The translations under genes were made by a program, and so were the position numbers. A stretch of 64,000 nucleotides of DNA from Holophagales bacterium. Its GTDB lineage: Bacteria; Acidobacteriota; Thermoanaerobaculia; UBA5066. Of this stretch, positions 26,529 to 47,116 are shown in pieces (the first letter of the stretch is position 1; each line of letters opens with the position of its first letter). Location of the stretch: positions 116,609 to 180,608 of the forward strand of contig JADKBZ010000016.1 in the NCBI GenBank assembly GCA_016714815.1. Direction: 5' to 3'. A model generated the notes under the pieces. It was not told the origin of the DNA. It worked only from the letters and a program-made list of their open reading frames with translations, and did not search any database.

Positions 26529-27662
26529 ATGGGCGCGGCCATGATCGTCCTCGTCGATTCGTCGCTCGCGGAGGACTCGGAGGAACGGAGGCTGACCCTC
26601 GAGAGCCTCACGAACCTTCCGGGGATCGAGGTCCGCGTCCACACCATCCGGGGGGCCCGGCAGACCCTCACCGAGATCTACCTGATCGGCGACACCGCCC
26701 GCCTCTCCGTCGAGGAAATCTCCGCCCTGCCGGGCGTGGAGCGGGTCGTCCGCGTCTCGGAGGAGTACCGGATCCTCGGGCGGCACAAGGACGACAGCCG
26801 GGCCGCCGGCTTCACGTACAACGGCGTCTCCTTCACCGAGGACAACCTCAACGTCTTCGCCGGCCTCTGCGCCGTCGACACGAAAGAGAGCGTCGAGGAG
26901 ATGTTCCGGGCGCTTCGGCAGCACGGTCAGGTCTGCAGCCGGATGGGGGCCTACAAGCCGCGTTCGAGCCCGTACTCGTTCCAGGGGCACGGCAAGGCGT
27001 GCCTGCCGTGGGTCTTCGAGCTCGCGGGCAAGTACGGGATCAGGGTGATCGCCATGGAGATCACGCACGAGAGCCACGTGGACGAGGTGGCCGAGAGCCT
27101 GGAGCGGACCGGGCACCCGACGGGCGTGATGCTCCAGATCGGCACGCGCAACATCCAGAACTTCGAGCTCCTCAAGGTCGTCGGCCGGCAGCGGGAGTTC
27201 CCCATCCTCGTCAAGAGGGGCTTCGGCATCTCGCTGAGCGAATCGCTCAACGCCGCCGAGTACCTCGCGAGCGAAGGGAAGACGGAGATCGTCTTCTGTC
27301 TCCGGGGCGTGAAGACGAACCTGGGCGACCCGCACAGGAACCTCGTCGACTTCTCCCACGTGCCGGTCGTCAAGCGGCTGACGCGGATGCCGGTCTGCGT
27401 CGACCCGTCGCACTCCGTTGGCTCGCGCGAGCGCGCGCCCGACCGGATGCTCGACCTGATGCACGTGACGGCGCAGGGAGTCGTGGCCGGGGCCGACATG
27501 GTCCTCGTCGACTTCCACCCCGCGCCGGCGAAGGCTCTCGTGGACGGGCCGCAGGCCCTGCTTCTCAAGGAGCTGCCGTGGTTCCTCGAGGACGTCGCCC
27601 TCGCCCGGGAATGCTACGAGAAGCGCCGCGCGCTGGTCGGGCGTCACGCGGCGGCGTCTTAG
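26529..27662 (+). CDS. 3-deoxy-7-phosphoheptulonate (DAHP) synthase, type I-beta, with an N-terminal regulatory domain
   Basis: GAYKPRSSPYSFQG matches the KPRTSPYSFQG motif of I-beta DAHPS/KDO8PS. Motifs LQIGTRNIQN and VDPSHS are present, with an extra domain of about 110 aa at the N-terminus. Confidence 0.85.
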   Translation: MGAAMIVLVDSSLAEDSEERRLTLESLTNLPGIEVRVHTIRGARQTLTEIYLIGDTARLSVEEISALPGVERVVRVSEEYRILGRHKDDSRAAGFTYNGVSFTEDNLNVFAGLCAVDTKESVEEMFRALRQHGQVCSRMGAYKPRSSPYSFQGHGKACLPWVFELAGKYGIRVIAMEITHESHVDEVAESLERTGHPTGVMLQIGTRNIQNFELLKVVGRQREFPILVKRGFGISLSESLNAAEYLASEGKTEIVFCLRGVKTNLGDPHRNLVDFSHVPVVKRLTRMPVCVDPSHSVGSRERAPDRMLDLMHVTAQGVVAGADMVLVDFHPAPAKALVDGPQALLLKELPWFLEDVALARECYEKRRALVGRHAAAS

Positions 27663-27698
27663 GGCGAAGCTTTCCACTCGTAGCCCCGGAGGAACGCC

Positions 27699-29549
27699 AT
27701 GAGGACTCGATCGCTGATCGGAATTCTCGCCGTGCTCTGCGTGGGCTGGCTCTTCGTGCTCGGGCCGGCCCTGCTCGCGTACGCGCGCATCCTCCGGAAC
27801 GCCGACGGCTATCGGCCGGCGGAGCTCGTCGTCACGGGGCAGAACTGCATCGGGGGGACGAGGGATTCGAAGGGGAGGAGCTCGCCCCGGTTCTGCTTCC
27901 TCGAGGGCAAGGTCGTGGAGGGAGAGGGGCCGGGCATCGAAGAGGAGATGTCTGTCGGCTCGGAGCTTCCCGCAGACAGGCCGGTCGGGACACGCGTCGC
28001 CGTCCACTACAACCCGGCCCTGCCGCCCTTCGGGATGAACTACTTCAACCTGAGAGTCCTGCCCCGGGAAGACGTCGGCCCCGCGACGATGGCCCGCCGA
28101 CGGCTGCTGAGGGCGACCCGCATCATCCAGCTCTCGCTCGGGCTCGCCCTCCTGGTTCACCTGCTCCTGCGCTGGGGGCGCCGCCGATTCACCAGGGAAT
28201 CGCCCGATTTCTCGGTGGACCTGGGCGGCGGCCATCCCGTGGGGGGCACGCTCCTCCTCAGCCAGGGGCTCGTGTTCCTGCTGGGGCAGGGCCGGAGCCC
28301 CGCTGTCGCCGGGATCATCCTGGGCCTCCTCCTGGTTCTGGCGGGAGTGCCGCTTCTCCTCCGCCGATACGCCGTCTTCTCGCGAGACCTCGGGGCCGTG
28401 ACCCGCGGACGGCAGTTTCTCGGGGTGAGCCTCGGTTCGACACCTTCCCCGTGGCCCGAGCCCCGGAACGTCGTTCTCGGAGTCGACGCGGGGCGCCTCA
28501 CGATCTCGATCTTCGGCTCGGATTCGACCGAGGTGATTCCGGGCCGCGAGACCTACGCCCGGAGCCGGGACCTCGCCGCGCGCCTGGCCGGGTACTTCAG
28601 GGTCGATCTGGAGGACCGGGCCGAGGCCCACCAGGAGCTCCTCAGGCAGGCGGACTGGCTCTCCGCGCCGCAGATCGTCCGCGCGCTGGGCCGGTGGGGC
28701 GTCGTCCTCGGCGGCGTCGTGCTGATTCTCGGAGGCGCGGCGCTCGCCGTCGATCGCGTCCCGAGCCTTCGCATGCCGGTCGTGAAGGAGATCCTCGACC
28801 CCTCGGGGCGCCTGAGGCACACGGCATCCCTGCGCGGCTGGGCGCTCTCCCGCCTCGAGCGGGATCCGTCGGACGAGGCCCTGCTCGAGCTGATGAAGGT
28901 CCTGAACACGGTCGACGCCGGCTCCTTCCCCGACGTCGCGGAGGACGTCGCTGCGGCGGCCCTGCGAAAGTCGGGACTTCCGCCCCTTCAGGGGGAAGGC
29001 CGCGACGGCCGCATTCTCCGGATCAACGCCTGGGCGTCCGTTCGACTCGGCCGTCCCCTCGACGACGGCGGCGGCCTGCTCGGCTGGTTCCCGGTCGACC
29101 CGCGATTCGCCCTCGAGGTCGAGAAGATCGCGGGCACGGACCTCCGGGAAGCCTGGTCGACCTGGAGCTTCATCGGCGCCGGCCAGCTGACGACCCCCGA
29201 GCAGTTTCTCTTCGCCCTCGGTGCGGCCCTCGGAGACCGGCGTCCCGTCCATTTCGCCATCCGGAAGGGGAGCTTTTTCCAGATCCCCGGGAGCGAACTC
29301 CCGTTCGAGGGGCAGCCGGAGCCGATCGAGGAGCATCCCGAAGCGATCGTTCGGACCGTGGGGGATGCGATCGCCATCCGCCTCTGGACGATGCAGGGCG
29401 TCGGCGACGAAAAGTTCCCCGAGGACTTCCTCGCCTGGTGGAGGGAGTGGGCGCGCGCCCGCCGGATACCGGTCGCAGGTCCGGCGATGGCTCCTCCGGG
29501 CGACGGGGCCGCGCCTTCGTCCGGTGGCGCCTCGGGGGCGATTCGTTGA
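27699..29549 (+). CDS. hypothetical polytopic membrane protein (616 aa)
   Basis: Several hydrophobic helices (ILAVLCVGWLFVLGPALLAYA, IIQLSLGLALLVHLLL, GIILGLLLVLAGVPLLL, VVLGGVVLILGGAALAV). No recognisable catalytic motif. Confidence 0.5.
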   Translation: MRTRSLIGILAVLCVGWLFVLGPALLAYARILRNADGYRPAELVVTGQNCIGGTRDSKGRSSPRFCFLEGKVVEGEGPGIEEEMSVGSELPADRPVGTRVAVHYNPALPPFGMNYFNLRVLPREDVGPATMARRRLLRATRIIQLSLGLALLVHLLLRWGRRRFTRESPDFSVDLGGGHPVGGTLLLSQGLVFLLGQGRSPAVAGIILGLLLVLAGVPLLLRRYAVFSRDLGAVTRGRQFLGVSLGSTPSPWPEPRNVVLGVDAGRLTISIFGSDSTEVIPGRETYARSRDLAARLAGYFRVDLEDRAEAHQELLRQADWLSAPQIVRALGRWGVVLGGVVLILGGAALAVDRVPSLRMPVVKEILDPSGRLRHTASLRGWALSRLERDPSDEALLELMKVLNTVDAGSFPDVAEDVAAAALRKSGLPPLQGEGRDGRILRINAWASVRLGRPLDDGGGLLGWFPVDPRFALEVEKIAGTDLREAWSTWSFIGAGQLTTPEQFLFALGAALGDRRPVHFAIRKGSFFQIPGSELPFEGQPEPIEEHPEAIVRTVGDAIAIRLWTMQGVGDEKFPEDFLAWWREWARARRIPVAGPAMAPPGDGAAPSSGGASGAIR

Positions 29550-29655
29550 CCCGCGAACGGCGCGGTGAGCGCGGTGGCGTGGTCAAGCACGCCAGGGGGA
29601 TGGGATTTTGGGAGTCGGCGGGAAGGGGCGGGGGAAACGCAGGCCGCTCCCCACG

Positions 29656-30600
29656 TCACGGGCGGGACGTCGCCGCCCGCGAGGGAAGGGCGTTGGCAAG
29701 GGCCTCCTTGAGCGTCGCGCGGACGAAGCGGCCCCCGGCGCTCTCCTCCGTCCTCCGGTGCCCGTAGAGGTGGACCTCGATCGGGGCGATCTCGAGCGGA
29801 GGAGGGAAGACGCGGAGATCGAGCGGGCGGAGCTGAACCGGGGCGAGCCGCCGCGGCATCGTGAGGAGGAGGTCTGAGGTTGCGGCCACCAGGCAGGCCG
29901 TCTCGTACCGCTGGCAGCGGACGGCGACGCGCCGCCGGAGCCCCTGGGCGCCGAAGCGGAAATCCTCCAGGGTCGGGCCCGTGCGGCGCGAGGAGACCGC
30001 GACGTGGCCCGCCGCGAGATAGCCGTCGCGGTCCAGCTTGCGCCGGCCCTTCGCCGCGACGACGCAGAAGTCGTCCTCGAAGACCCGCTCGTGGACGAGG
30101 TCGTCCTCCGTCGGCCGGGCGACGTCGAAGGCGGCGTCGATCCGGCCCGCGGCGAGGTCCGCGCGCAGCTGCGCCCGGTCGAGGCGGACCGCCGAGAGCT
30201 CGAGGTTCGGGGCGGCTTCGCGGAAGCGCCGGACGATCGGGGGGACGAAGAGCGCCTCGAGCTCCTCCGGGAGGGCGAGGGTGAGGCGGGCGAGGTCCCG
30301 GCCCGGGTCGAAGCCCCGCCGGTCGACGAGGGCCTGCTCGACCGCGGCGAGGGCCTCGCGGACGGCCGGCGCGAGCCGGGACGCCATCGGCGTCGGGACG
30401 ATCCCGCGTCCCTGCCGGACGAAGAGGGGATCGCCGAGGTGGTCGCGAAGGCGGGCCACCGCGTGGCTGACCGCGGACGGGGAAAGGAAGAGCTCCTCCG
30501 CGGCGCGCCCCAGGCTCCGCTCCCGGTAGACGACGTCGAAGACGCGGACGAGGTTCAGGTCGAGGCGCTTCAGGCCAGGTGCGTCATGCACGGTGTTCAT
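29656..30600 (-). CDS. LysR family transcriptional regulator, divergent from the SDR/WS-DGAT operon
   Basis: N-terminal HTH LVRVFDVVYRERSLGRAAEELFLSPSAVSHAVARLRDHLGDPLFVR, plus a LysR substrate-binding domain. Confidence 0.9.
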   Translation of the reverse strand: MNTVHDAPGLKRLDLNLVRVFDVVYRERSLGRAAEELFLSPSAVSHAVARLRDHLGDPLFVRQGRGIVPTPMASRLAPAVREALAAVEQALVDRRGFDPGRDLARLTLALPEELEALFVPPIVRRFREAAPNLELSAVRLDRAQLRADLAAGRIDAAFDVARPTEDDLVHERVFEDDFCVVAAKGRRKLDRDGYLAAGHVAVSSRRTGPTLEDFRFGAQGLRRRVAVRCQRYETACLVAATSDLLLTMPRRLAPVQLRPLDLRVFPPPLEIAPIEVHLYGHRRTEESAGGRFVRATLKEALANALPSRAATSRP

Positions 30601-30658
30601 CTCGACTCATGCGAAGGATTCACTGGATTCATGATATCGCTGCGCCTACGCTTCGCCC

Positions 30659-31525
30659 GTGGCGCGACACGAGAGGCCCGGAGACGGGCCGGCGGGCGGG
30701 AAGAGGATCTTCGTCACCGGCGGCGCGTCGGGCCTCGGCCGCGCGCTCGCCGAGCGCTACGCCCGCGAGGGGTGGCGCGTCTGCATCGGCGACCTCGACG
30801 AGGCGCGGGGCGAGGCCGCTCTCGCCGGCCTCGCGGCGGGCGCAGAGCGCCGCTTCCTTCGCTGTGACGTGACGCACGAGGAAGACCTCGCCGCCGCGGC
30901 GCGCTGGCTCGAGGAGACGTGGGGCGGCGTCGACGTCGTCGTCAACAACGCGGGGGTGGCGGTGAGCGGGGGGATCGCCGAGACGCCGCTCGCCGACTGG
31001 CAGTGGATCGTCGACGTGAATCTTCTCGGAGTCGTCCGCGGCTGCAAGGTCTTCACGCCGCTCTTCCGGAGGATCGGGGGCGGCCACCTCGTGAACATCG
31101 CCTCCATGGCGGGGCTCGTCCACCCCCCGATGATGTCCGCCTACGCCGCCACGAAGGCGGCCGTGGTGGCGCTCTCCGAGGCGCTCCGGATCGAGCTCGC
31201 GCCGGACCGGATCGCCGTGACGGTCGTCTGCCCGGGCTTCTTCCGGACGAGCCTTGCCGACTCGGCGCGGGCCGCGAGCCCCGAGATCGACGGCGTGACG
31301 CGGGCTCTCGTCGTCCGGGCGCGCCGGACGGCTCCCGAGATGGCGGAGCTGATCTACCGGGGGGTGGAGCGGGGCGACTTCCTGGTCCTGACGCACCGCG
31401 ACGGGAAGCTCTCCTTCCTGCTGAAGAGGCTCCTGCCGTTCCCGCTCTACTCCCGGATCCTCGCGCGGGGCGCCCGGAAGATGCTCTCGCGGCGTCCGGA
31501 GCCGCGCCCGGCGAGCCCATCGTGA
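30659..31525 (+). CDS. SDR-family oxidoreductase
   Basis: Rossmann motif VTGGASGLG, NNAG, and catalytic S...YAATK. The likely start is the GTG at 30659. The stop overlaps the next gene's start in a GTGA. Confidence 0.8.
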   Translation: MARHERPGDGPAGGKRIFVTGGASGLGRALAERYAREGWRVCIGDLDEARGEAALAGLAAGAERRFLRCDVTHEEDLAAAARWLEETWGGVDVVVNNAGVAVSGGIAETPLADWQWIVDVNLLGVVRGCKVFTPLFRRIGGGHLVNIASMAGLVHPPMMSAYAATKAAVVALSEALRIELAPDRIAVTVVCPGFFRTSLADSARAASPEIDGVTRALVVRARRTAPEMAELIYRGVERGDFLVLTHRDGKLSFLLKRLLPFPLYSRILARGARKMLSRRPEPRPASPS

Positions 31526-33000
31526 CCACGAGCCCGGAGAGCTGGTCCGAGCGGCTGAGCGCTCTCGACGCGGGGTTCCTCGACCTCGAGGCGCCGAACG
31601 CCCCGATGCACGTCGGCTCGGTCTCGATCTTTTCCGGGAAGGTGCCCTCGCAGCGCGAGATGGCGGACCTCATCGCCTCGCGCCTCGACCGCGTCCCGCG
31701 CTACGCCCAGAAGCTCGCGTCCGTACCCTTCGGCCTGGGGCGTCCCGTCTGGGTGGACGACCCGGACTTCGACCTCGACCGGCACGTCCTCGCCACGTCG
31801 CTTCCTCGCCCCGGCCTTCCGGAGCTCCGGCGGTTCGTGGCCGACCTCTTCGCCCGCCCTCTCGACCGCGACCGGCCCCTCTGGGAATACTGGCTCCTCG
31901 GCGGCCTCGGGCGGGGCCGTTTCGCCGTCGTCACGAAGACCCACCACTGCATGATCGACGGCGTCTCCGGCGTGGACCTCGCCTCGACCCTGATGGAGAT
32001 CGACAGGCGGGCGCGGCGCACGGGTCCTCCGGTCTCTCTCGCGCCGCGCCCGGCACCCGGCGCGATCGAGCGCGTGAAGGACGCGCTCGGCGACCAGCTC
32101 TCGCGCCCGTTCGGCCTCGCGTTCGAGGCGATCAGGCCCGATACCCTGGGGCGGAGGGCGCTCGGAGAGATCGCGGGCGGGTTCGGCCCGCTGCTGGGCA
32201 TCGGGAAGCTGGGGCCCGCTCCCGCCTCCTCCCTCAACCGCACCGTCGGCCTCTCCCGCCGCTGGGAGATGGTCTCGCTCGACCTCGCGGAGGTGAAAGA
32301 GGTCCGCGGGGCGCTCGGCGGAACGGTCAACGACGTCGTCCTGGCGGTCGTCGCCGGCGGCCTCCGGAAACTCCTCCTCTCTCGCAGGGAGACGATCGGC
32401 GCTCCCCTCCGCGTCCTCGTCCCGGTCAGCGTCCGGGCTCCGGAGGAGCGGAGTGCCCTCGGCAACAGGGTGGCGGCCCTCTTCTGTCCCCTGCCGGTCG
32501 ACGAGCCCGATCCCCTTTCGCGGCTGCGCCTCGTCTCGGCCGCGACGAAGGGGCTGAAGGAGAGCCGGCAGGCGGTTGGCGCGATGGCGCTGACGCGCCT
32601 CGGCGACTTCGCCCCGCCGACGCTGGCCGCTCTCGCGACCCGCCTCCAGGCGATGGCTCCGTGGTTCAACGTCGTCGTCACGAACGTCCCCGGGCCCCAG
32701 CTGCCGCTCTACCTCCTCGGCCGCCGCCTCCTCGCCTGCCACCCGGCCGTGCCGCTCACCGTCGCGACGACGATCTCGGTCGCGCTCCTCAGCTACGACG
32801 GGTCGATAGACCTCGGACTCCTCGGGGACGGAGAGCAGGCGGCCGACCTGGCGGTCCTGGCGCGCGCCGTCAGGACGTCGCTCGCCGAGCTCGTCGGCCT
32901 GGCCAGAGCGACCGGAGGAGCCGGAGAGTCCAGAAAGTCCAGAGACGCCAGAGAAGGCGGAGAAGCCAGGGAAGCCGGAGACAGGTCGAACTCGAGATGA
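31522..33000 (+). CDS. wax ester synthase/acyl-CoA:diacylglycerol acyltransferase (WS/DGAT)
   Basis: The catalytic HHCMIDGVSG (HHxxxDG) motif is present, with typical WS/DGAT N- and C-terminal regions. The GTG start at 31522 overlaps the SDR stop. Confidence 0.9.
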   Translation: MTTSPESWSERLSALDAGFLDLEAPNAPMHVGSVSIFSGKVPSQREMADLIASRLDRVPRYAQKLASVPFGLGRPVWVDDPDFDLDRHVLATSLPRPGLPELRRFVADLFARPLDRDRPLWEYWLLGGLGRGRFAVVTKTHHCMIDGVSGVDLASTLMEIDRRARRTGPPVSLAPRPAPGAIERVKDALGDQLSRPFGLAFEAIRPDTLGRRALGEIAGGFGPLLGIGKLGPAPASSLNRTVGLSRRWEMVSLDLAEVKEVRGALGGTVNDVVLAVVAGGLRKLLLSRRETIGAPLRVLVPVSVRAPEERSALGNRVAALFCPLPVDEPDPLSRLRLVSAATKGLKESRQAVGAMALTRLGDFAPPTLAALATRLQAMAPWFNVVVTNVPGPQLPLYLLGRRLLACHPAVPLTVATTISVALLSYDGSIDLGLLGDGEQAADLAVLARAVRTSLAELVGLARATGGAGESRKSRDAREGGEAREAGDRSNSR

Positions 33001-33836
33001 CATACGTCCCGCGCGGAAAGCACACGATCTTCTACGACGTCACGGGCCCCGACGACGCCCCTCCTCTTCTCCTGGTGATGGGGATGGGCTTCTCCTCGCG
33101 TGCCTGGGCCTCGCTGCCGCAGCGCCTCTCCGAGCACTTTCGCGTGATCGCCTTCGACAACCGCGGAACCGGGAGGTCGAGCGGGTCGGGGATCGTCTTT
33201 CGCGTGCGGGACATGGCCGAGGACGCGGCCGCGGTCCTCGACGCGGCGAACGCCAAAGAAGCTCTCGTCTTCGGGATCTCGATGGGGGGAATGGTGGCGC
33301 TCGAGCTGGCGCTCTGCCACCCGGAGCGCGTCCGCAAGCTCGCTCTCGGAGCGACCTTCGCCGGCTGGCTGCAGAGCCGCAAGCCCTCGCCCTCGACGGT
33401 GGGCGGGGTCCTTCTAGGAGGGGTCCTCTCGCGCGTCGGGGCGCACCGGGTCCTCGGCGAGATCCTCGTCTCCACCGGCTTCGCGGGCCGGGACTACGAC
33501 AAGCTCTCGACCTGGATCGTGAACGGGGAGCGGGTCCGTCCGCACGTCCTGGTCCAGCAGATGACGGCGGTGACGCTCCACGGCACGACCTCGCGCCTCG
33601 GCTCGCTGAGCGTCCCCACGCTCGTCCTGACGGGCGACAGCGACCGGCTCGTCCCCGAGGAGAACTCGAGGCGCCTCGCGGGGCTGATCCCCGGCGCCCG
33701 TCTCGAGGTTCTGCCCGGCGCCGGGCACTGCTTCCCCCTCGAACAGCCGGACGCGACCCTCGCGCAGCTGCTCCGGTTCTTCGGCGAGAGGGTCCCGGCC
33801 GGGAAGGTCGAGGAGACGAAAGCGAGACGGAGGTAG
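32997..33836 (+). CDS. alpha/beta-fold hydrolase
   Basis: The ATG at 32997 overlaps the WS/DGAT stop (ATGA). The nucleophile elbow is GISMGG (GxSxG), and the C-terminus has GAGHCFPLEQPD (His of the triad). Confidence 0.85.
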   Translation: MTYVPRGKHTIFYDVTGPDDAPPLLLVMGMGFSSRAWASLPQRLSEHFRVIAFDNRGTGRSSGSGIVFRVRDMAEDAAAVLDAANAKEALVFGISMGGMVALELALCHPERVRKLALGATFAGWLQSRKPSPSTVGGVLLGGVLSRVGAHRVLGEILVSTGFAGRDYDKLSTWIVNGERVRPHVLVQQMTAVTLHGTTSRLGSLSVPTLVLTGDSDRLVPEENSRRLAGLIPGARLEVLPGAGHCFPLEQPDATLAQLLRFFGERVPAGKVEETKARRR

Positions 33837-33838
33837 GG

Positions 33839-35044
33839 ATGGACTTTTCGGAATCGGCAAAGGTGCGGACGATCCGCCAGGTGGTGCGGGACTTCATGGA
33901 GGCCGAGGTTTTCCCTCTCGAGCAGGCCTTCCTCCACGACGGGTTCGTCGCGATCCTCCCGGTCCTGAAGGAAAAGCGCGAGCGGGCCCGGCAGACCGGT
34001 CTCTTCGCGGCGCACGTCCCGGAAGCGTGGGGCGGGGCGGGGCTCTCGCTTCCCGAGTTCGCGAACATGAGCGAGGAGCTCGGCAGGAGCCCGCTCGGGC
34101 ACTACGTCTTCAACGTCCAGGCGCCCGACGTCGGGAACATGGAAGTCCTGATGGAGCACGGCACGCCGGAGCAGAAGGAGCGGTTCCTCGTCCCTCTCGT
34201 CCGGGGCGAGATCCGGAGCTGCTTCACGATGACGGAGCCGGAGTTCGCCGGCTCGAACCCGGTCCACATGGGGACGACGGCCCGCAGAGACGGAGGGGAG
34301 TGGGTCCTCCGCGGGCACAAGTGGTTCGCGTCGTCGGCGGACGGCGCGGCGTTCGCGGTCTGCATGGCAATCACCGACCCCGACGCGGCCGAGCCCCACC
34401 GGAGGGCGAGCACGATCCTCGTCCCGACGGACACGCCGGGCTTCGAGCTGATCGGAAACCTCTCCGTGATGGGGCACCGCGGCGGCGACTGGGCGAGCCA
34501 CGGCGAGGTCAGCTACCAGGACGCCCGCGTCCCGCTCGGAAACCTCCTCGGCAAGGAAGGGGAGGGCTTCGTCATCGCGCAGGAGAGGCTCGGGCCGGGA
34601 CGGATCCACCACTGCATGCGCTGGATCGGGGTCTGCGAGCGGGCGCACGAGATCCTCTGCCGGCACGCGGCGACGCGGGAGCTCTCGCCGGGAAGGCCGC
34701 TCGGGTCGAAGCAGATCGTGCAGCAGTGGATCGCCGAGAGCCGCGCCGAGATCCACGCGGCGCGCCTGATGGTTCTGCACGCCGCGTGGAAGATCGAGAA
34801 CGAGGGGGCCCGCGCCGCGCGCGAGGAGATCTCCCTCATCAAGTTCACCGTGGCCCGGACGCTCCAGCGCGTCCTGGACAGGGCGATCCAGGCCCTGGGC
34901 GGCCTCGGGATGACCGACGACACGCCGCTCGCCTTCTGGTACGCGCACGAGCGGGCCGCGCGAATCTACGACGGGGCCGACGAGGTCCACGTCGAGTCGG
35001 TGGCGCGCCGGATCCTCGGCCGCTACGGAATGCGCGCGCGGTGA
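33839..35044 (+). CDS. acyl-CoA dehydrogenase
   Basis: ACAD N-terminal, middle and C-terminal domains (FTMTEPEFAGSNP, GEGFVIAQERLGPGRIHHCMRWIG, YDGADEVH). The start is 2 nt after the hydrolase stop. Confidence 0.9.
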   Translation: MDFSESAKVRTIRQVVRDFMEAEVFPLEQAFLHDGFVAILPVLKEKRERARQTGLFAAHVPEAWGGAGLSLPEFANMSEELGRSPLGHYVFNVQAPDVGNMEVLMEHGTPEQKERFLVPLVRGEIRSCFTMTEPEFAGSNPVHMGTTARRDGGEWVLRGHKWFASSADGAAFAVCMAITDPDAAEPHRRASTILVPTDTPGFELIGNLSVMGHRGGDWASHGEVSYQDARVPLGNLLGKEGEGFVIAQERLGPGRIHHCMRWIGVCERAHEILCRHAATRELSPGRPLGSKQIVQQWIAESRAEIHAARLMVLHAAWKIENEGARAAREEISLIKFTVARTLQRVLDRAIQALGGLGMTDDTPLAFWYAHERAARIYDGADEVHVESVARRILGRYGMRAR

Positions 35045-36165
35045 AAGGCGCCGAAGCGGGAGCGGTCCGCGCCGCCGAGGACGGGGGAGCGCGCGGCGCG
35101 GGGGCCGTCCGGCGTGGCGAGGAGCTGGACCTCGCCGCCGTCGACGCCTTCCTCAAGCCGCGCGTCCCGGGCCTGGCGGGGAGCCCGCGCGTCACGCAGT
35201 ACGCGGGCGGGGCGTCGAACTGGACCTACCGGCTGGAGTACCCGTCGCACGACCTCGTCCTCCGGCGGCCCCCCGCCGGCACGAAGGCGAAGTCGGCGCA
35301 CGACATGGGGCGCGAGTTCCGCGTCCAGGCCGCACTCGGCCCCTTCTTTCCGTACGTCCCCGAGATGGTCGCGTTCTGCGACGACCCTTCGGTCCTGGGC
35401 TGCGAGTTCTACGTCATGCGGCGCATCGCGGGGGTCATCCCCCGCGCGAACCTGCCGAAGGGGATCGTCCTGACGCCCGACGAGGCGCGCCGGATGTGCC
35501 TCTCGGTCCTCGACCGGCTCGTCGACCTCCACCGCGTCGACGCGAACGCGGCGGGCCTGGCGGCCCTTGGCAAGGGCGCCGGCTACTGCCGGAGACAGGT
35601 GGACGGCTGGACGGATCGATACGCGAAGGCCCGGACGTGGAACGTCCCGCGATTCGCCCGCGTCACCAATTGGCTGAAGGCGAACACCCCCGACGACGTC
35701 GCCACCTGCGTCATCCACAACGACTTCCGGCTCGACAACGTCGTCCTCGACCCGGACGACGCGACGCGCGTCGTCGGCATCCTCGACTGGGAGATGGCGA
35801 CGCTCGGCGACCCGCTGATGGATCTCGGCAACAGCCTGGCGTACTGGGTAGAGGCGGGGGACGACTTCGTGATCCGCTCGATGCGGCGCCAGCCGACGCA
35901 CCTCCCCGGCATGCTCACGCGGCGGGAGGTCGTGGCCGCCTACTTCGAGCGGTCGGGCCTCCCCGCGCGGGACGTCACCTTCTACGAGGTCTACGGCCTC
36001 TTCCGCCTCGCCGTGATCGCCCAGCAGATCTACTTCCGCTACCACCGGGGCGAGACGAGGAACCCGGCCTTCAGGCGGTTCTGGATCCTGGCGCACTACC
36101 TCCAGTGGCGGTGCGGGCGATTGATCCGCTCATTCACTGATCCATTGATCCGCAACCGAGAGTAG
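35041..36165 (+). CDS. APH-like phosphotransferase family protein (the ACAD10/11-associated kinase type)
   Basis: The GTG at 35041 overlaps the ACAD stop (GTGA). Brenner motif IHNDFRLDNVVL and ILDWEMATLGDP are present. Confidence 0.8.
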   Translation: MKGAEAGAVRAAEDGGARGAGAVRRGEELDLAAVDAFLKPRVPGLAGSPRVTQYAGGASNWTYRLEYPSHDLVLRRPPAGTKAKSAHDMGREFRVQAALGPFFPYVPEMVAFCDDPSVLGCEFYVMRRIAGVIPRANLPKGIVLTPDEARRMCLSVLDRLVDLHRVDANAAGLAALGKGAGYCRRQVDGWTDRYAKARTWNVPRFARVTNWLKANTPDDVATCVIHNDFRLDNVVLDPDDATRVVGILDWEMATLGDPLMDLGNSLAYWVEAGDDFVIRSMRRQPTHLPGMLTRREVVAAYFERSGLPARDVTFYEVYGLFRLAVIAQQIYFRYHRGETRNPAFRRFWILAHYLQWRCGRLIRSFTDPLIRNRE

Positions 36166-36289
36166 GGACAGGAGGCCGCGGCGAGGGGGCTCGGCCCCAA
36201 TGCTGGACGAGTTCGACGCGCTGCCACCCTCAGGGATGGGAAGTCGATCTCGGGCGGCAGTGCGGCCGATCGGCGGGTTGGGCTTCGAC

Positions 36290-36400
36290 GGGCCCAGGGA
36301 CCTCGGGCGGTTCCTCGAGGGCGTGGCGCTGGCACGGGAGTGCTACGATGGATTTCGCGCGCTAACGCAGCGGCAAGCGGCCGCGTCAGCGGCTTCGCCC
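36290..36400 (+). pseudogene. diverged copy of the DAHP synthase 3' end (last ~30 codons) without a stop codon, in frame with the downstream Vgb-like gene
   Basis: At the DNA level, ggttcctcgagggcgtggcgctggcacgggagtgctacga... aligns with ggttcctcgaggacgtcgccctcgcccgggaatgctacga... at 27583-27662 (about 75-80% identity). At the protein level, FLEGVALARECYDGFRALTQRQAAAS aligns with FLEDVALARECYEKRRALVGRHAAAS. Confidence 0.45.
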
Positions 36401-36442: not shown

Positions 36443-37450
36443 ATGATGGCGACCGGACGATTCCCCTCGAGTTGTCGCGACCTGCCCCTCCTCGTCCTCG
36501 CAGCGCTCGCGCTCCTGGCAGCCCCGGCCTCGGCCGTGGTTGTGACGAACGAGTTCGCGGTCCCGACGGTGGACGGCGCGCCCAACGGCATCACCACCGG
36601 CCCCGACGGCAACCTCTGGTTCACGGAGTACAACGGCAACCGGATCGGCCGGATCACGCCTTCGGGAGTCGTCACGGAGTTCACGGTCCCGACGGCGTAC
36701 GGCGCTCCGTCCAGCATCACCACCGGCCCCGACGGCAACCTCTGGTTCACGGAGAGCACCGGTAACCGGATCGGCCGGATCACGACGGCCGGAGCCGTCA
36801 CGGAGTTCGCCGCGGGTGGCGGCCCCTCCGGCATCGTGGCCGGCCCCGACGGAAACCTCTGGTTCACGGAGGTTTCCGGCAACAGGATCGGCCGGATCAC
36901 GACAGCCGGAGCCGTCACGGAGTTCACGCTCCCGACCGCGGACAGCTACCCTCATCAGATCACTTCCGGTCCCGACGGGAACCTCTGGTTCACGGAGTAC
37001 GGCGGCAACAGGATCGGACGGATCACGACCGCGGGAGTGATCACGGAGTTCACGGTCCCGACGGCGAGAGCCGCTCTCACCGGCATCACCTCCGGTCCGG
37101 ATGGCAACCTCTGGTTCACGGAGTACCTCGGCAACAGGATCGGTCGGATCACGCCTTCGGGAGTCGTCACGGAGTTCGCGATCCCGACGGAGGAAAGCGC
37201 TCCCTTCGGCATCACGACCGGCCCCGATGGTGCTCTCTGGTTTACGGAGAGCAATGGCAACCGGATCGGCCGGATCACCACCTCGGGAGTCGTCACGGAG
37301 TTCGGGATCCCGACAGCGGCCAGCTGCCCTCATCGGATCACGACCGGCCCCGACGGCGCCCTCTGGTTCACGGAGAACGGCGTCCACAAGATCGGTCGGC
37401 TCGTCGCATCCCCGGCGCCGGTGGAAGTGGTGTCGATCGGCGTGGACTGA
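36443..37450 (+). CDS. secreted Vgb-family (streptogramin-B-lyase-like) seven-bladed beta-propeller protein
   Basis: SD AGGAGGG lies upstream of the ATG at 36443. After a signal peptide (MMATGRFPSSCRDLPLLVLAALALLAAPASA) come seven regular ~42-aa repeats ITTGPDGNLWFTE..GNRIGRIT..G.VTEF.VPT. Confidence 0.75.
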   Translation: MMATGRFPSSCRDLPLLVLAALALLAAPASAVVVTNEFAVPTVDGAPNGITTGPDGNLWFTEYNGNRIGRITPSGVVTEFTVPTAYGAPSSITTGPDGNLWFTESTGNRIGRITTAGAVTEFAAGGGPSGIVAGPDGNLWFTEVSGNRIGRITTAGAVTEFTLPTADSYPHQITSGPDGNLWFTEYGGNRIGRITTAGVITEFTVPTARAALTGITSGPDGNLWFTEYLGNRIGRITPSGVVTEFAIPTEESAPFGITTGPDGALWFTESNGNRIGRITTSGVVTEFGIPTAASCPHRITTGPDGALWFTENGVHKIGRLVASPAPVEVVSIGVD

Positions 37451-40387: not shown

Positions 40388-40590
40388 GCTCAGGGCTCGG
40401 CGCCTCCGTACCTGGCAGGTCGAACGCGGCATCTCTCACGAGCACGCGACGCTCCGCGAGGTCCTGGCGGAGCTGGAGAATCCCGGGGCCGAGGTCCGTC
40501 GGCTCCCGCCGGCTCCATCCGCCGCCGCCCTCGCCGGGGACGAGACCCCGAAAGGGCGGCGGCTTCCGGAAATGGCCCGGAGGGCGCTCG
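40388..40590 (+). pseudogene. diverged copy of the pfa3 3' end (last ~55 codons) without a stop codon, abutting the 3' end of the truncated flotillin copy
   Basis: Translation ISHEHATLREVLAELENPGAEVRRLPPAPSAAALAGDETPKGRRLPEMARRALGGG aligns with the pfa3 C-terminus VAHEHATLHEVLAELENPGDEIRRLLAAPSAAALAGDESPEGRWLAELGRRLLGG. The DNA aligns with 24661-24857. Confidence 0.5.
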
Positions 40591-41758
40591 GCGGCGGACC
40601 CCTTCTTCAGCTCCCCGTCGTCGTCTTCTCCGCCGGCGCCCCGAGCCTCGCGACGACCTTCGCGAGGTCGACGCCAAACGCCGTCTTCACCTGCTCGACG
40701 AGCTGGATTCCCTGCGTTACGCGGGCAGAGGCGGGCAGGTAGGAGATCCGGTCGACCCTGACGCTCTGGATCGTCTCGACGAGAGACGACATGACGGTCT
40801 GGAGCTTCTGCATCAGGAAGATGTCGCGGGCGTTGGGGCCGGCGGCCTTCCAGGTTTCGATCATCTGCGTCAGGACGGCGGCGGTCGCGCGGCCGTCCTC
40901 GACGATCTTGGCGGCCTTGCCGCGCGCCTCGGCCTGCCTCTTCTCCATGTCGGCGCGGGCGGGGGCGACGACGTCGGCGTCGAGCTGGAGGCGGACCTGC
41001 TCGATGCGCGCCTGCTGCACCTTCAGCTCGGCCTCGGCCTTGGCGATGGCGGTGGTGACCTTGCCGACCGCCTCGGCGACCATCGCCTCGCGGCCGGTCT
41101 CGCACTGCATGATCCGCTTGTCGGCTTCCGCGCGGGCGATGGCGCCGTCGGCGTCGATCAGGGCGAGGCGCGACGCGAGGCCGTTCTCGGCTTCCCGCAT
41201 GGTGGCCTCGGCGTGGGCCTGCGCCTCGGCGATCCGGGCGCTCTTGTCGAGGGCGGCCGACTGCTTGCGGCCGAGGGAGTTGAGGTAGCCGACGTCGTCG
41301 GAGACGTTCTGGACCTTCAGGACGTCGAGCGTCAGGCCGAGGCGGGAGAGGTCGTGCTCGGCCTCCTCGAGGAGCTTCTCGGCGAAGCGGAGCTTGTCCT
41401 GGTTGACTTCTTCGGGGGTGAGCTGGGAGAGGACGCCGCGCAGATTCCCCTCGAGGGTGTCCTTGGCGACCTGGATGATCTGCGGACGACCCTTCCCGAG
41501 ATGCCGTTCGAGCGCGTTGTTGAGGAGCGGCTGGTGGCCCGCGACCTTCAGGTTGGCGACGCCGGCGACGGTGAGCGGGATGCCGCCCTTGGAGTAGGCG
41601 TTTCTCACGGCGACGTCGACGGTCATGTTGGTGATGTCCATCCGGTCGACCCGCTCCAGGAGCGGCGTGCGAAGGGAGCTGTCTCCCTTGACGATCCGGT
41701 AGCCGACGGGGCGGCCGTCGACCGTCGACTTGCCGCCGGAGAAGACGAGGACCTCGTT
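40571..41758. repeat. left copy of a ~1.2-kb direct repeat (flotillin gene body); its partner is 45917-47116
   Basis: The central ~620 bp is virtually identical between copies, with more substitutions toward both edges. Similarity ends abruptly after gaggacctcgtt (41758 in this copy, 47116 in the other). Confidence 0.85.
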
Positions 41759-41785
41759 CTTCTCTCCCTCACTCCCTGCCGGCAC
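40607..41785 (-). pseudogene. 5'-truncated flotillin/SPFH (YqiK-like) paralog lacking the N-terminal membrane anchor
   Basis: The product is identical over most of its length to the flotillin at 45966-47213. Its N-terminus (MPAGSEGEKNEVLVFSGG) replaces the MIGDLGSVVGVAIGVVLFFGVAALFVVKRLF anchor. Homology ends at the island junction. Confidence 0.5.
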
Positions 41786-42175
41786 TCGGCTGGCTGACCC
41801 CGAAAGAAATTCTCAGAGACCTGTTGTAAAAAGCCGGGCCTCGCGCAGCTTAGCTATAGCGGACAAAGGCTGAGTCCGCCTTTTCCTCCTCGATCAGGAG
41901 GCAGAGGAGGCTGTGAGGAGTGTGAACAGAAAACTCTCTTCCTCGACCGGGTGCCAGCGGCGGTCCGTCCCGGCAGGGCCAAGGGGAAGTGAATGGATGC
42001 CGAAGTCGTCGACCGGACTCTCCGGCTGTCGCGAAACGCCAGGCGTGTACTCGCGGCCCTTACGCCACGCGCGGGCGCCACCTAATAGTCGAACCGCCAG
42101 CCACTCTGCAGGTAAGGGCGCACGCAAGCGGCGTCCGCAAGCTGCGACGGCGTCCGGAAGCAAGAAGGAGTAGAG

Positions 42176-44983
42176 TTGAAGTCCCCTAAGTCATTCTGCC
42201 CGCGACCAATGATCACTATGGCGGTTCTCTCTTCGTTTATCCTGTCCTTACCGACTCCGGCCGCTGAGCCCGGGAAAGATGCTCTCGCCGGGACGCTGGT
42301 CATCCGCTCCGGAAAGTCCCCTGTCGAGGCGGTCCTCAAGGACACCCCGGAACTGGTGGGGATAGAACAGTACTGCCAGAACGGCCAGTGTATCGTCCTC
42401 CCTCGAAGCGGAGCCGAGTTGGAAGCGCTCAGGGCCTTGGAGAAGGCTGGGGAGGTCGAACTGGAGCCGTTCCCCGACGCGAGAAGGATTTACTTCGCCA
42501 AGGCCACCTACGATGCGGACGCAGGCGCTTTCGACGCCCAGTTCCATGGCAGCGCAGAGGTCGGCGGTCCCTCGGCCCTGGGCCAGTGGGCGGTCATCCT
42601 AAAGGCCTTCTTGAGCCCAGCCTGGCAGAAAGACTTCGAGAACGCCGGGTTCTTCCTGGGAGATTCCCTGGGACCGGTCGCCTACCAGCTATTCGGCCCG
42701 ACGGAGGCACTCCAAGCTCTCCTTACAAGAGTGCCGTATATCGCAGCGACCGTTCCAATCCCCCACGGGATCAAGCGCTTTCGTGTCGACGAGCCACTTC
42801 CAGGGGATGAGGACGGCGCCTCAGCCCCGACAACGGTTGCGATCTTCGCCTTGGAGGAGTCGCCGGCTCGAACGCTTCTTGAGAGGCGGGAAGGGTTACC
42901 GCTTTCGGTCGTCTACACGTCGAAGAAGACCGTCGCCTATCGCGCATCTCTGACCCGGGACGAGGCGCTCTATCTCAGCACCTTCCCCGATGTCGTCGCC
43001 GTCATGCGAGAGACGGCTACGGCGAGTCCGTCGGATGAACGCAGCAACCGGATCATCGCGGGAGCATTTCAGGACCCGTCCTCATCGTGGCCACTGTCTC
43101 TCACACCGAACACGAGCCCTCCGTTCTGGAACGGCTACCTCGCGTCTCTGGCCAGCATCGGCATTCACCCTGAGAATCAGACAATCGGCTTTCTCGACAG
43201 TGGCGTGGGGCTCTCGCCGATGCTCACCTGCCCTCCGGCCCTCGTTGATCCGACTAGCGGCAAGTGCAGCCTCACTCTCTATGACAACGGCGGCGTCGAC
43301 CTGAGGAGCATCGCGGACGTCGTCGAGGAGTTCGGCGATCCGGCGCTTCGGGGAAACGACTACCTTAGCCATGGAACTCTGACGACGGCGATCGCCGCCG
43401 GCTTTGCTACTCTTGTCAGAAGCCGGGATGACGAACAGTACTCCATGAGCCAGGGGGTCGCGCCGGGGGCCAAGATAGCGATGAGCCGAACGCTGGTGGG
43501 GCTCGGGCTGAGCTGCATCCCGGACTCCACGCCCCCTCAATTCAAGTCCTATCGGAGATTCCCGAACATGCCTGGGGGCGGATATCTGTTCTACGATGAT
43601 CTGAAGGTCCGTTACTCTCTTGCAGTTCTAAGTCAGCCGGTAAACCCAGACATCCTGGCGCCAGATGGTGTCATGGGGGCAGGCGCAACGCTTTTCAATC
43701 ACAGCTGGAACTTGCCCTCTATTTCGGACTACGGCCCGGTGGATATCATTCTGGACAAGAGCGCGCGGACGCTCTCGTCGGTTACGTTCGATTTCGGGCC
43801 GGATCACGATCACCCCAACGTTCTCACCGGGCCGGCGGTTCCGGCGACGCATGTGGTCTCGGCAGGCAATACGGACACGTCTTCCAACCCAACGATGGTC
43901 ACTTCTCCTGGGACGGCCAAGAACGTGATCACCGTAGGAGCGACGGAAAGCTACAACCAGCTGCCCCCGACCTCGTACCCTGTCGGCTGTCGAGCGGGAG
44001 AACTGGCCGATGCCGACAACCCGCGCCAGATTGCGATTCTGAGCCGGTTCGGGTATCCGAACAACCGCCTGAAACCCGACATCGTGGCGCCGGGGACGCG
44101 CGTCTTCGCACCCTTTAGTGAAGCGTATAACACGAGCGAATCCTGCATAGGGAAGCTGGCGTGCTATTCGGCTGTGGGCACTGTGAAGCGGCCGCACATC
44201 ATCACTTCCGGCACGAGCTTCGCCGCGCCGGCCGTCACTGGCGTTGTAGCGCTGCTTCGCGAGTGGTTTGGCGTCCTTGGAAAACCAGTGCCGAGCCCGG
44301 CCATGATACGAGCTACCTTGATCGTCGGCGCTCAGAACCTCGTCGAATTCCGAAGTGCCTGGGGCGCCTGCCACGACGCCAATGGCGGCCAGTGGTGGTG
44401 CGGCGACATGAGGCCTGCTCCCGATCAGTACCAGGGATGGGGGGGCGTGTCGCTTGCCCGCTACTTCAGCCCCGCGTCGAACTACTTCTTCCATGACCAG
44501 GAGAACGACACGATTCTGTGCCAAGACTGCTCAGGTCCCGGAAGCCAACCCTGGACGACCACGCTGACCATAAACGATTCTTCGAAGGTGGTTCGACTCG
44601 CGGTGGCCTGGACCGACGCGGCGGGGACGGAGGTCCTCGCGCCGTTCGACAACCTCAAGAACGATCTCGATCTGGAGGTCCGCGCAACCGGGAGCGACGG
44701 AATCCCACACGTCTGGTACGGAAACGTCTTCTATTCGAATCGGGACGATCTGGCGCGAACCGAGAACTCGCTCCGGGATCCGGCCTCCCCGGTCTCGAGG
44801 GATCGAAAGAACAACCAGGAGAAAGCTGCGATCGCCCCGGTGGGGCAGCCGAATGGCCTCCCGGCCGGTGCGACGACACTCACGATCACAGTCAGGGCCT
44901 TCAACCTCACCGAGAACGGCCTCATTCCCGACGACCCGGCAAGGAGACAAGACTTTGCCATAGCAGTGGAGAACGCACATTGA
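42176..44983 (+). CDS. secreted subtilisin-like serine peptidase (S8 family), 935 aa, in a lower-GC island
   Basis: SD AAGGAG lies 5 nt before the TTG at 42176 (alternative ATG at 42209). Signal peptide present. Catalytic triad motifs are FLDSGVG (Asp), HGTLTTAIAAG (His) and GTSFAAPAVTGVVALL (Ser). There is a long C-terminal extension. Confidence 0.85.
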   Translation: MKSPKSFCPRPMITMAVLSSFILSLPTPAAEPGKDALAGTLVIRSGKSPVEAVLKDTPELVGIEQYCQNGQCIVLPRSGAELEALRALEKAGEVELEPFPDARRIYFAKATYDADAGAFDAQFHGSAEVGGPSALGQWAVILKAFLSPAWQKDFENAGFFLGDSLGPVAYQLFGPTEALQALLTRVPYIAATVPIPHGIKRFRVDEPLPGDEDGASAPTTVAIFALEESPARTLLERREGLPLSVVYTSKKTVAYRASLTRDEALYLSTFPDVVAVMRETATASPSDERSNRIIAGAFQDPSSSWPLSLTPNTSPPFWNGYLASLASIGIHPENQTIGFLDSGVGLSPMLTCPPALVDPTSGKCSLTLYDNGGVDLRSIADVVEEFGDPALRGNDYLSHGTLTTAIAAGFATLVRSRDDEQYSMSQGVAPGAKIAMSRTLVGLGLSCIPDSTPPQFKSYRRFPNMPGGGYLFYDDLKVRYSLAVLSQPVNPDILAPDGVMGAGATLFNHSWNLPSISDYGPVDIILDKSARTLSSVTFDFGPDHDHPNVLTGPAVPATHVVSAGNTDTSSNPTMVTSPGTAKNVITVGATESYNQLPPTSYPVGCRAGELADADNPRQIAILSRFGYPNNRLKPDIVAPGTRVFAPFSEAYNTSESCIGKLACYSAVGTVKRPHIITSGTSFAAPAVTGVVALLREWFGVLGKPVPSPAMIRATLIVGAQNLVEFRSAWGACHDANGGQWWCGDMRPAPDQYQGWGGVSLARYFSPASNYFFHDQENDTILCQDCSGPGSQPWTTTLTINDSSKVVRLAVAWTDAAGTEVLAPFDNLKNDLDLEVRATGSDGIPHVWYGNVFYSNRDDLARTENSLRDPASPVSRDRKNNQEKAAIAPVGQPNGLPAGATTLTITVRAFNLTENGLIPDDPARRQDFAIAVENAH

Positions 44984-45891
44984 AGAAGCTTCTTCTCGTC
45001 GTCACTCTCGGCGTCGCTGCGACCGCTCTTCCCGCGGCGGAACAGAAGCGTTACTACGTCCCGCTCATTCATGCCCAGACGGGGTTGGAGATCATTCCGG
45101 GTGCGACTCCGGAAGATACTCAAGTGATTCAAACGCTGTGGATGGGGAATATCTCAGCGTTCAATTCGAGCAACGTAACGGCTTCGATCACACCCACGGC
45201 CGTATACGGAGGGTTCGTTTTCAGGCCGGGCAGCCACTCGATAGGTCTCGAAGCGGGAACAGGCGATCAGTTCGTCCGGTGGCCGTATGCGGGATTTGCA
45301 GGACCCAGTATCGGTCCGGTCGGCTTCGCCGAGCTGATGGCGGACACCGGGATGGTCGTGAACGCGGGGGTCGAGAAGGCTCAATACTGCGCGGGATGCC
45401 CCATACCGGATCGGGTCGATCAAGCGGCCCTGGTCTCGCAGGGGCGCTCGGCGATTCCCGTGTTCGAGGAGCTGTTCCCGGCAGGCCGATCGGTCATCTG
45501 CGGCGAAGTCAACCTCGGGGCGCCCCGCCAAATCTGCGGGAAGCCGGCGAATCAGCAGTACCCGCGACGCGTGAACGTGACGCTCTTCAACGCCGGAAGC
45601 GCCCCCGCGACGTTCAAGGTCGAGGCGATTCCGCTCTACACGGACCCCGACCCGATCTTCTCGCAGACGGTCACCGTGGCGGCGAAGGACGTGATCCAGC
45701 TGAACGACGTGCCGATTCCGCGGATCGAGAACGGGCACATGACGGTCGACTTCGACGTCTACGTCTGGATCCGGATCCACTGCGACCAGCCCTTCCTGGC
45801 GTACGCCAGCTCGATCTTCGAGGGTGGGGCGACGGGGTCGATGCCCTTCGAAGTCTTCACGCCACGGCTGGCCGCCGAGACCGGGCCGTGA
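44980..45891 (+). CDS. secreted hypothetical protein (about 303 aa) downstream of the S8 peptidase
   Basis: The TTG start overlaps the peptidase stop. Signal peptide LKKLLLVVTLGVAATALPAAE. Cys-containing, with no recognised domain. Confidence 0.45.
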   Translation: MKKLLLVVTLGVAATALPAAEQKRYYVPLIHAQTGLEIIPGATPEDTQVIQTLWMGNISAFNSSNVTASITPTAVYGGFVFRPGSHSIGLEAGTGDQFVRWPYAGFAGPSIGPVGFAELMADTGMVVNAGVEKAQYCAGCPIPDRVDQAALVSQGRSAIPVFEELFPAGRSVICGEVNLGAPRQICGKPANQQYPRRVNVTLFNAGSAPATFKVEAIPLYTDPDPIFSQTVTVAAKDVIQLNDVPIPRIENGHMTVDFDVYVWIRIHCDQPFLAYASSIFEGGATGSMPFEVFTPRLAAETGP

Positions 45892-45916
45892 GAAATAGCT
45901 AGGTCAGTTCCCGGAT

Positions 45917-47116
45917 GGAGGGGCGCCGCCGGAGGCGGCGGCGCCTACCCCTTCTCCGCCGGTGCCTACCCCTTCTCTTCCGGCGCCCCGAGCCGCGCGA
46001 CGACCTTCGCCAGGTCGACGCCGAAGGCGGTCTTGACCTGCTCGACGAGCTGGATCCCCTGCGTCACGCGCGCGTCCGCCGGGAGGTAGGAGATCCGGTC
46101 GACCCTGACGCTCTGGATCGTCTCGACGAGAGACGACATGACGGTCTGGAGCTTCTGCATCAGGAAGATGTCGCGGGCGTTGGGGCCGGCGGCCTTCCAG
46201 GTTTCGATCATCTGCGTCAGGACGGCGGCGGTCGCGCGGCCGTCCTCGACGATCTTGGCGGCCTTGCCGCGCGCCTCGGCCTGCCTCTTCTCCATGTCGG
46301 CGCGGGCGGGGGCGACGACGTCGGCGTCGAGCTGGAGGCGGACCTGCTCGATGCGCGCCTGCTGGACCTTCAGCTCGGCCTCGGCCTTGGCGATGGCGGT
46401 GGTGACCTTTCCGACCGCTTCGGCGACCATCGCCTCGCGGCCGGTCTCGCACTGCATGATCCGCTTGTCGGCTTCGGCGCGGGCGATCGCGCCGTCGGCG
46501 TCGATCAGGGCGAGGCGCGACGCGAGGCCGTTCTCGGCTTCCCGCATGGTGGCCTCGGCGTGGGCCTGCGCCTCGGCGATCCGGGCGCTCTTGTCGAGGG
46601 CGGCCGACTGCTTGCGGCCGAGGGAGTTGAGGTAGCCGACGTCGTCGGAGACGTTCTGGACCTTCAGGACGTCGAGCGTCAGGCCGAGGCGGGAGAGGTC
46701 GTGCTCGGCCTCCTCGAGGAGCTTCTCGGCGAAGCGGAGCTTGTCCTGGTTGACCTCCTCGGGGGTGAGCTGGGAGAGAACGCCGCGGAGGTTGCCTTCG
46801 AGGGTGTCCTTGGCGACCTGGATGATCTGCGGGCGGCCTTTGCCGAGGAGGCGCTCGAGGGCGTTGTTGAGGAGCGGCTGGTGGCCGGCGACCTTGAGGT
46901 TGGCGACGCCGGCGACGGTGAGCGGGATGCCTCCCTTGGAGTAGGCGTTGCTCACGGCGACGTCGACGGTCATGTTGGTGATGTCCATCCGGTCGACGCG
47001 CTCCAGGAGCGGAGTACGCAGGGAGCTGCCCCCCTTGACGATCCGGTAGCCGACGGCGCGGCCGTCGACGGTCGACTTGCCGCCGGAGAAGACGAGGACC
47101 TCGTTCGGGCTGCAGA
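45917..47116. repeat. right copy of the ~1.2-kb flotillin direct repeat
   Basis: See 40571-41758. The 3' flank of this copy (45917-45960) also carries a ~35-bp remnant resembling the extreme pfa3 tail. Confidence 0.85.

Follow-up and report, generated by a model that had tools for sequence, protein, structure and literature searches.

Elements of the e14 and phage 21 type insert into the 3' end of a coding gene, icd in E. coli, and supply it with a substitute end. Their integrase lies beside the att site, and an exact core sequence is shared. The intact end of the gene is then the one provided by the element, and at the far side lies a second version of this end, displaced and slightly different.

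Gene ends can also be duplicated by homologous recombination. In E. coli, circular molecules carrying part of the lacZ end integrate by single crossovers, duplicating 109-950 bp of it (PMC3240628). These single crossovers are commoner at lacZ than true homology-facilitated illegitimate recombination (PMC3240628). Such Campbell-type integration, documented in lacZ conjugation, leaves an intact gene, foreign DNA, and a 5'-truncated direct duplicate of the gene end, and a site-specific recombinase is unnecessary (PMC3240628). For T6SS effector/immunity arrays and Rhs loci, one-sided homologous insertion displacing the old 3' ends has been proposed (PMC5361080). In these Rhs, CDI, and T6SS loci, a conserved upstream part of a gene acts as the homologous anchor: new DNA is inserted after it and shifts the old 3' end downstream. 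Stacked remnants accumulate over repeated rounds, and the process has been attributed to homology-facilitated illegitimate recombination (PMC5361080).

The window analysed here is a 64,000-nucleotide stretch of the genome of a Holophagales bacterium. An intact gene, a block of other genes, and a 5'-truncated, same-strand copy of the gene's tail succeed each other three times in 30 kb of this window, once in a nested fashion, at the DAHP synthase (DAHPS), PKS, and flotillin genes. The left part of the locus reads PKS / SBP5, DAHPS / membrane protein, LysR, five lipid genes. The right part continues with DAHPS', the displaced DAHPS tail, followed by Vgb-like, DUF1206, MgtC, a 308-aa ORF / PKS', flot-1 / S8 peptidase, a 184-aa ORF / flotillin. 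We consider it probable, though far from certain, that DAHPS' is a non-functional fossil of a former junction between DAHPS and the Vgb-like gene, produced by a homology-anchored additive insertion (insertion-duplication, or C-terminal displacement) analogous to the recombination events above. The features are as follows.

16155..24857, + strand: PUFA-synthase-like PKS gene encoding 2900 aa; PKS' has the gene's tail, 24670-24841, as its template
26529..27662, + strand: DAHP synthase gene (DAHPS), intact, 377 aa (ORF and translation; 70-87% identical homologues)
27663..36286, no strand: block C, 8.6 kb, between DAHPS and DAHPS' (gene calls and Pfam)
27699-29549: 616-aa membrane protein of block C, no Pfam hit
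29656-30600, - strand: LysR of block C
30659-36165: SDR, WS/DGAT, alpha/beta hydrolase, acyl-CoA dehydrogenase (ACAD), and APH-type kinase of block C, then 121 nt of spacer
36287..36391, + strand: DAHPS' relic, corresponding to the last ~30 DAHPS codons, decayed, in frame, and without a stop (blastn/tblastn, shuffles, HMM, repeat search)
36443..37450, + strand: Vgb-lyase-like beta-propeller gene, 335 aa (PF24684, E 2e-118; 335 aa in other assemblies)
40411..40600, + strand: PKS' relic, stop-less, the last ~60 PKS codons, 15.7 kb downstream, abutting the flot-1 3' end
40607..41785, - strand: flot-1, a 5'-truncated flotillin copy (copied part 40625-41759)
41786..45965: block B, 4.2 kb, between the flotillin copies, with an S8 peptidase (42176-44983) and a 184-aa ORF (Pfam)
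45966..47213, - strand: flot-2, full-length flotillin, 415 aa (collinearity with the right flank shared by the related contigs L188, L190, and L191)

The resident DAHPS is of type I-beta, with an N-terminal ferredoxin-like domain (Pfam PF18152, DAHP_snth_FXD, and PF00793, DAHP_synth_1), and its C-terminal residues are ...ELPWFLEDVALARECYEKRRALVGRHAAAS before the stop. The final ~83-117 nt of this gene are the template of DAHPS', which sits in the 277-nt spacer between the stop of the APH-type kinase gene (36165) and the start of the Vgb-like gene (36443). Read in the frame of the ORF at 36200-37450, this region translates as ...DGPRDLGRFLEGVALARECYDGFRALTQRQAAASAAS... The secure core of DAHPS' spans 36296-36391, and positions 36287-36295 (Asp-Gly-Pro) are alignable only if a 15-nt deletion is assumed. 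Blastn aligns 27580-27619 with 36309-36348 (85% over 40 nt, E 2.7e-7), and an independent repeat search pairs 27566-27619 with 36295-36348 (78% over 54 nt, at a spacing of 8729), so that a self-comparison of the window, suggested along with the original prediction, recovers the DAHPS tail pair by two methods. At the protein level, tblastn matches DAHPS residues 339-377 to 36287-36388 (59% identity over 39 aa, E 6e-6). The gapped local alignment of 27580-27658 with 36309-36387 scores 54, ~11 standard deviations above 1000 dinucleotide shuffles (mean 22, sd 2.7, max 33), a comparison that had been chosen beforehand and that the similarity withstands. The highest alignment score among 888 other tiles of the window, taken as a control, is 33. 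A family HMM (119 DAHPS homologues) aligns with DAHPS' only through profile positions 344-372 of 374 (E 1e-5), hence DAHPS' retains only the last ~30 codons. By blastn, tblastn, HMM, and repeat search alike, the displaced, stop-less DAHPS 3' end proposed to lie before the Vgb-like gene is real.

Between DAHPS and DAHPS', 24 of the 81 aligned bases (27 codons) differ, a divergence of ~30%. Their longest exact match is the 12-nt GGTTCCTCGAGG, located in the conserved Phe-Leu-Glu codons. The TAG of DAHPS is aligned with a GCG in DAHPS', and the frame is open onward into the Vgb-like gene. A longer DAHPS relic 5' of 36296 was sought without success, the family HMM recognizing the tail only in the six frames of 36000-36500. 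A Met-Leu-Asp resemblance at 36200 is likewise unsupported as a further DAHPS remnant.

The Vgb-like gene has its start at the ATG at 36443, downstream of an AAGGAGG, and begins with a signal peptide. DAHPS' was placed upstream of this gene and in frame with it by the original prediction, correctly in both respects, but the distance of ~100 bp given there is too large, as DAHPS' ends 51 nt before the start. Nor does the shared frame have a coding meaning: with a Shine-Dalgarno sequence and a signal peptide of the gene's own at 36443, and with 335-aa proteins called in other assemblies, the in-frame position of DAHPS' is a coincidence. A search for homologues of the 416-aa ORF was flooded by long multi-repeat Vgb-like proteins and returned no orthologue. 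In the spacer, no Rfam hit and no consensus match to an RNA element, promoter, or terminator were found. In annotation, a 416-aa protein should not be predicted from the ORF at 36200-37450, and pseudogene remnants are to be recorded at 36287-36391 and 40411-40600. The Vgb-like gene itself contains 126-nt (42-aa) tandem repeats at 36531-37430, 71-82% identical to each other. In contig L001, an indel near the equivalent of 36826 breaks the call of this gene.

The region has been assembled repeatedly. Positions 36100-36460 (361 nt) are 100% identical in 10 contigs from at least seven assemblies (JGI, ENA, Logan, and NCBI), which rules out the misassembly at 36.2-36.4 kb that had been raised as a caveat. 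The junction between DAHPS and the membrane protein gene is present in eight contigs, and the PKS' and flotillin junctions are likewise reproduced in independent assemblies. The 10 contigs all belong to one species, a wastewater Thermoanaerobaculia/Holophagales MAG. Within this species, the fragment is carried, in identical form, by all 10 contigs that cover the spacer; being from one species, they are uninformative on polymorphism between species.

Block C does not look foreign. Its GC content is 0.717 and its tetranucleotide usage correlates with that of the flanks at 0.993 (0.974-0.993 for native 8.6-kb chunks); a foreign composition is thus rejected, and a native one is as expected if the donor was closely related. 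At its right end (36100-36165), the APH-type kinase terminates in ...RLIRSFTDPLIRNRE before the stop, and its closest relatives (L107, L108) in ...RLIRAGGG. A 10-nt direct repeat, ATTGATCCGC, occurs at 36120 and 36144 in an unusually AT-rich patch at this APH 3' end; block C may have an old junction here, or a small duplication.

Searches for an empty site of block C were conducted from both sides. On the DAHPS side, 80 genome loci (69-80% identity) and metagenomic DAHPS genes (79-87%) all have different neighbours. On the side of the lipid operon, 80 metagenome loci with the acyl-CoA dehydrogenase as anchor provide no empty site. The closest of them, L105-L108, keep SDR, ACAD, and APH, with unrelated genes after APH. 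Among the loci examined, no relative has DAHPS followed directly by the Vgb-like gene, or by the 616-aa membrane protein gene. Several relatives have pheA upstream of DAHPS; DAHPS follows pheA in the nearest relatives and an SBP_bac_5 gene here. This type of DAHPS is 70-80% identical across Acidobacteriota, Gammaproteobacteria (Competibacter, Gallionella, and Nitrosomonas), Myxococcota, and others (L009-L088). These observations suggest frequent transfer or relocation of the gene. The top-scoring DAHPS hit, protein P0001 (ENA, 628 aa), has internally duplicated segments, more suggestive of a chimeric assembly than of a genuine fusion.

The relationship of DAHPS' to the resident gene has been assessed over 57 nt of the conserved last helix. 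DAHPS' matches the resident gene at 42/57 positions and the closest DAHPS orthologue compared (L094, 87% amino-acid identity) at 42/57 as well. Matches to other Thermoanaerobaculia and one Myxococcota gene amount to 35-40/57, and the resident gene matches its orthologues at 43-51. By these counts, DAHPS' is a long branch with no special closeness to the resident gene. At the position of a Pro in the resident clade it carries Gly (ELGW, as in the wider family), and its tail, ...QRQAAAS, is of the Thermoanaerobaculia type. The matching counts and the Gly would also suit a remnant derived from another DAHPS lineage. All of its amino-acid changes (8/8) lead away from the family consensus, as is expected of a copy without selection. 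Third codon positions account for 14 of the 24 differences (P = 0.010 against a uniform distribution, P = 0.11 if the synonymous drift of the intact gene is allowed for). The similarity of the resident DAHPS to L094 is even along the gene (81-93%), a profile that rejects a foreign 3' end, and no break that could mark a crossover was found along it.

The PKS and flotillin copies are less diverged. The PKS tail at 24670-24841 aligns in frame with 40411-40582 (82% over 172 nt, E 1.6e-42 by blastn), and PKS' is also recognized by tblastn (69% over 67 aa, E 1e-15) and in a three-way alignment with L188. In this pair, 15 of the 31 differences fall at third positions (P 0.059). An 85% direct repeat of ~360 nt (13178-13535 and 13487-13844), inside the large PKS-type ORF at 9422-16147, probably corresponds to tandem carrier-protein or linker domains. 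The flotillin copies are 95.6% identical over 1135 nt (40625-41759 in flot-1 and 45972-47106 in flot-2), with 98.4% amino-acid identity. Their central ~600 nt are 97-100% identical and the flanks 86-93%, a profile that indicates a gene-conversion patch. Of their 50 differences, 43 are at third codon positions, which implies that the two copies diverged as functional alleles, in keeping with an anchor-gene copy that came in on the inserted DNA. Because of this third-position bias, flot-1 may still be expressed, from the GTG at 41785, as far as its sequence tells. Of the three blocks, block B alone has a foreign-looking composition, its GC content being 0.624 against 0.68-0.73 elsewhere.

Further evidence on how these arrangements arose is provided by L188, a 173-kb ENA contig among the much closer relatives to which a search for homologues of the flotillin copy at 40607-41785 led, and 85-94% identical to the window at the nucleotide level, albeit a single error-prone assembly with fragmented gene calls. 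L188 is collinear with the window from 56105 to 45966 and then continues directly with 24853-14968. It lacks window positions 24858-45965 (~21 kb), block B included, and thus represents the empty state. L188 has a single flotillin gene there, convergent with the PKS gene, and the stops of the two overlap in the palindrome GGCTAGCC (L188 ~11900-11925). As the stops overlap, any insertion between the two genes must rebuild both gene ends. The DNA downstream of flot-1 matches L188, the DNA downstream of flot-2 does not, and therefore PKS'/flot-1 is a fossil of the ancestral convergent junction. This fossil is stranded in the middle of the insert, and the working PKS and flotillin genes lie at its outer edges. 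The insertion reading of the PKS and flotillin copies is hence backed by an empty-site genome. A simple tandem duplication was rejected as the origin of PKS'/flot-1, since each truncated copy would then be paired with a full-length partner, an arrangement that is not observed. In L189 and L191, yet other genes lie 3' of the flotillin gene, and this spot is consequently a variable junction.

How, then, did the DAHPS tail come to lie beyond block C? The arrangement was initially read as the trace of a site-specific element that integrates into a gene's 3' end, like attL and attR at tRNA genes. In such a model, an integrative element of the island or prophage type, like e14 in icd, would have entered the DAHPS 3' end, brought a replacement end, and later lost its integrase. 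A gene with a complete end, a block, and a displaced tail are indeed what such elements leave, and the nucleotide homology of DAHPS' starts abruptly at the 12-nt identity. This origin is nevertheless improbable. As the original prediction had stated, no integrase is present: Pfam recognizes no recombinase or transposase among the seven genes of block C or in the two sister blocks (the 616-aa and 308-aa proteins have no hits). The window has no tRNA gene, and an exact core repeat is absent, the 12-nt identity lying in codons conserved in all DAHPS, although age could have erased a core. No att-like motif is common to the six block junctions. The native composition of block C also speaks against an integrative element, and three target genes within 30 kb would require three independent integrase losses. 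What stands of the initial interpretation is the layout as a real insertion signature, seen three times and with an empty outer site in L188; the site-specific mechanism, with neither integrase, tRNA, exact core, nor shared junction motif, is unsupported. Compared with e14 and phage 21, the locus shares the intact end, the block, and the slightly different displaced copy, but neither the integrase beside att nor the exact core.

Alternatively, a second DAHPS gene, paralogous or acquired, might once have stood between APH and the Vgb-like gene and been deleted from its 5' side, independently of block C. That the relic is as distant from the resident gene as from other genera's orthologues, and that it has Gly in place of Pro, would suit such a history, as would the excess of synonymous-site changes, which suggests that part of the divergence arose under coding constraint. 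We still regard it as fairly unlikely, given that about 170 related loci include no case of two DAHPS copies or of DAHPS adjoining APH or a Vgb-like gene, that a second tail is absent from the 80 genome and 80 metagenome loci, and that the HMM detects no other part of the gene. A lost second gene would, in addition, leave unexplained both the intact same-strand DAHPS exactly one block upstream and the recurrence of the layout at PKS and flotillin, where L188 reveals a displaced junction and not a lost paralogue. Chance similarity, an assembly artefact, or a translated N-terminal extension of the Vgb-like protein are very improbable indeed. The extension could draw on the shared frame and on the ATG at 36200 that opens it, yet the translation signals at 36443 and the 335-aa calls contradict it. 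The shuffling score and the family HMM argue against chance, and the identity of the spacer between assemblies against an artefact.

The homology-anchored insertion favoured above would have proceeded from an ancestral state in which DAHPS was directly followed by the Vgb-like gene, its former downstream neighbour. The donor would have been a close relative with DAHPS followed by the membrane protein, LysR, and lipid genes, whose DNA recombined with the chromosome with the shared DAHPS sequence as the sole homologous anchor. A circularised fragment could have entered by a single crossover (Campbell-type insertion-duplication), or a homologous crossover at one end could have been combined with an illegitimate join at the other. 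Either route would result in an intact DAHPS, the 8.6-kb block, and a 5'-truncated DAHPS tail still joined to the Vgb-like gene. Without a start codon or a function, this tail would then have decayed, accumulating its 24 differences in 81 bases, losing its stop, and possibly undergoing a 15-nt deletion. The same process would have taken place at least twice more nearby, at PKS and flotillin, stacking DNA between originally convergent genes. The threefold layout and the empty site of L188 for the outer pair make the addition of block C between DAHPS and the Vgb-like gene plausible. As no syntenic relative was found for it, the DAHPS case rests on analogy and on its layout, and both its origin in common with the other two and the route of recombination are inferences. 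The excess of third-position differences fits copies that were already diverged alleles at the time of insertion, at least for flotillin. Copy divergence is 30% for DAHPS, 18% for PKS, and 4.4% for flotillin, and this ranking suggests that the DAHPS event, with the highest value, may be the oldest of the three.

The window resembles the products of Campbell-type integration at lacZ in its intact genes, intervening DNA, and 5'-truncated direct duplicates of gene ends, and in doing without a site-specific recombinase. The duplications measure roughly 90-105, 172-190, and 1135 nt here, against the 109-950 bp of E. coli. Unlike in the lacZ experiments, the events are natural, old (5-30% copy divergence), and brought 4-15 kb of cargo. 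With Rhs, CDI, and T6SS loci, the window shares the anchoring upstream gene part, the new DNA placed after it, the old 3' end pushed downstream, and the stacking of remnants. Those loci, however, encode toxins and immunity proteins under diversifying selection, and their displaced ends are often still usable (PMC5361080), whereas the anchoring genes here encode a biosynthetic enzyme, a PKS, and a flotillin, the inserted genes have metabolic and regulatory roles, and DAHPS' and PKS' are simply decaying. The locus is a clear natural example of a known process, threefold and nested, in an uncultured lineage, and not a new kind of system.

Fossils of gene tails make the order of gene gains readable from a single genome. 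Those described here indicate that DAHPS was once the neighbour of the Vgb-like gene and that PKS and flotillin were once convergent, the latter being confirmed by a relative. They also indicate that ~21 kb, with a wax-ester/lipid gene set among the additions, accumulated stepwise, with no visible mobile element. A bolder view, which we put forward as a long shot, is that this lineage undergoes recurrent, recombinase-independent growth of its chromosome, with blocks stacked at gene 3' ends in one hotspot. If so, the hotspot would lie between originally convergent genes with overlapping stops, and each event would regenerate a gene end and leave a fossil behind. A dedicated or strongly biased process, e.g., transformation-driven one-sided recombination, would then be at work rather than three unrelated accidents, and it would be one of the main ways in which uncultured Acidobacteriota acquire genes.
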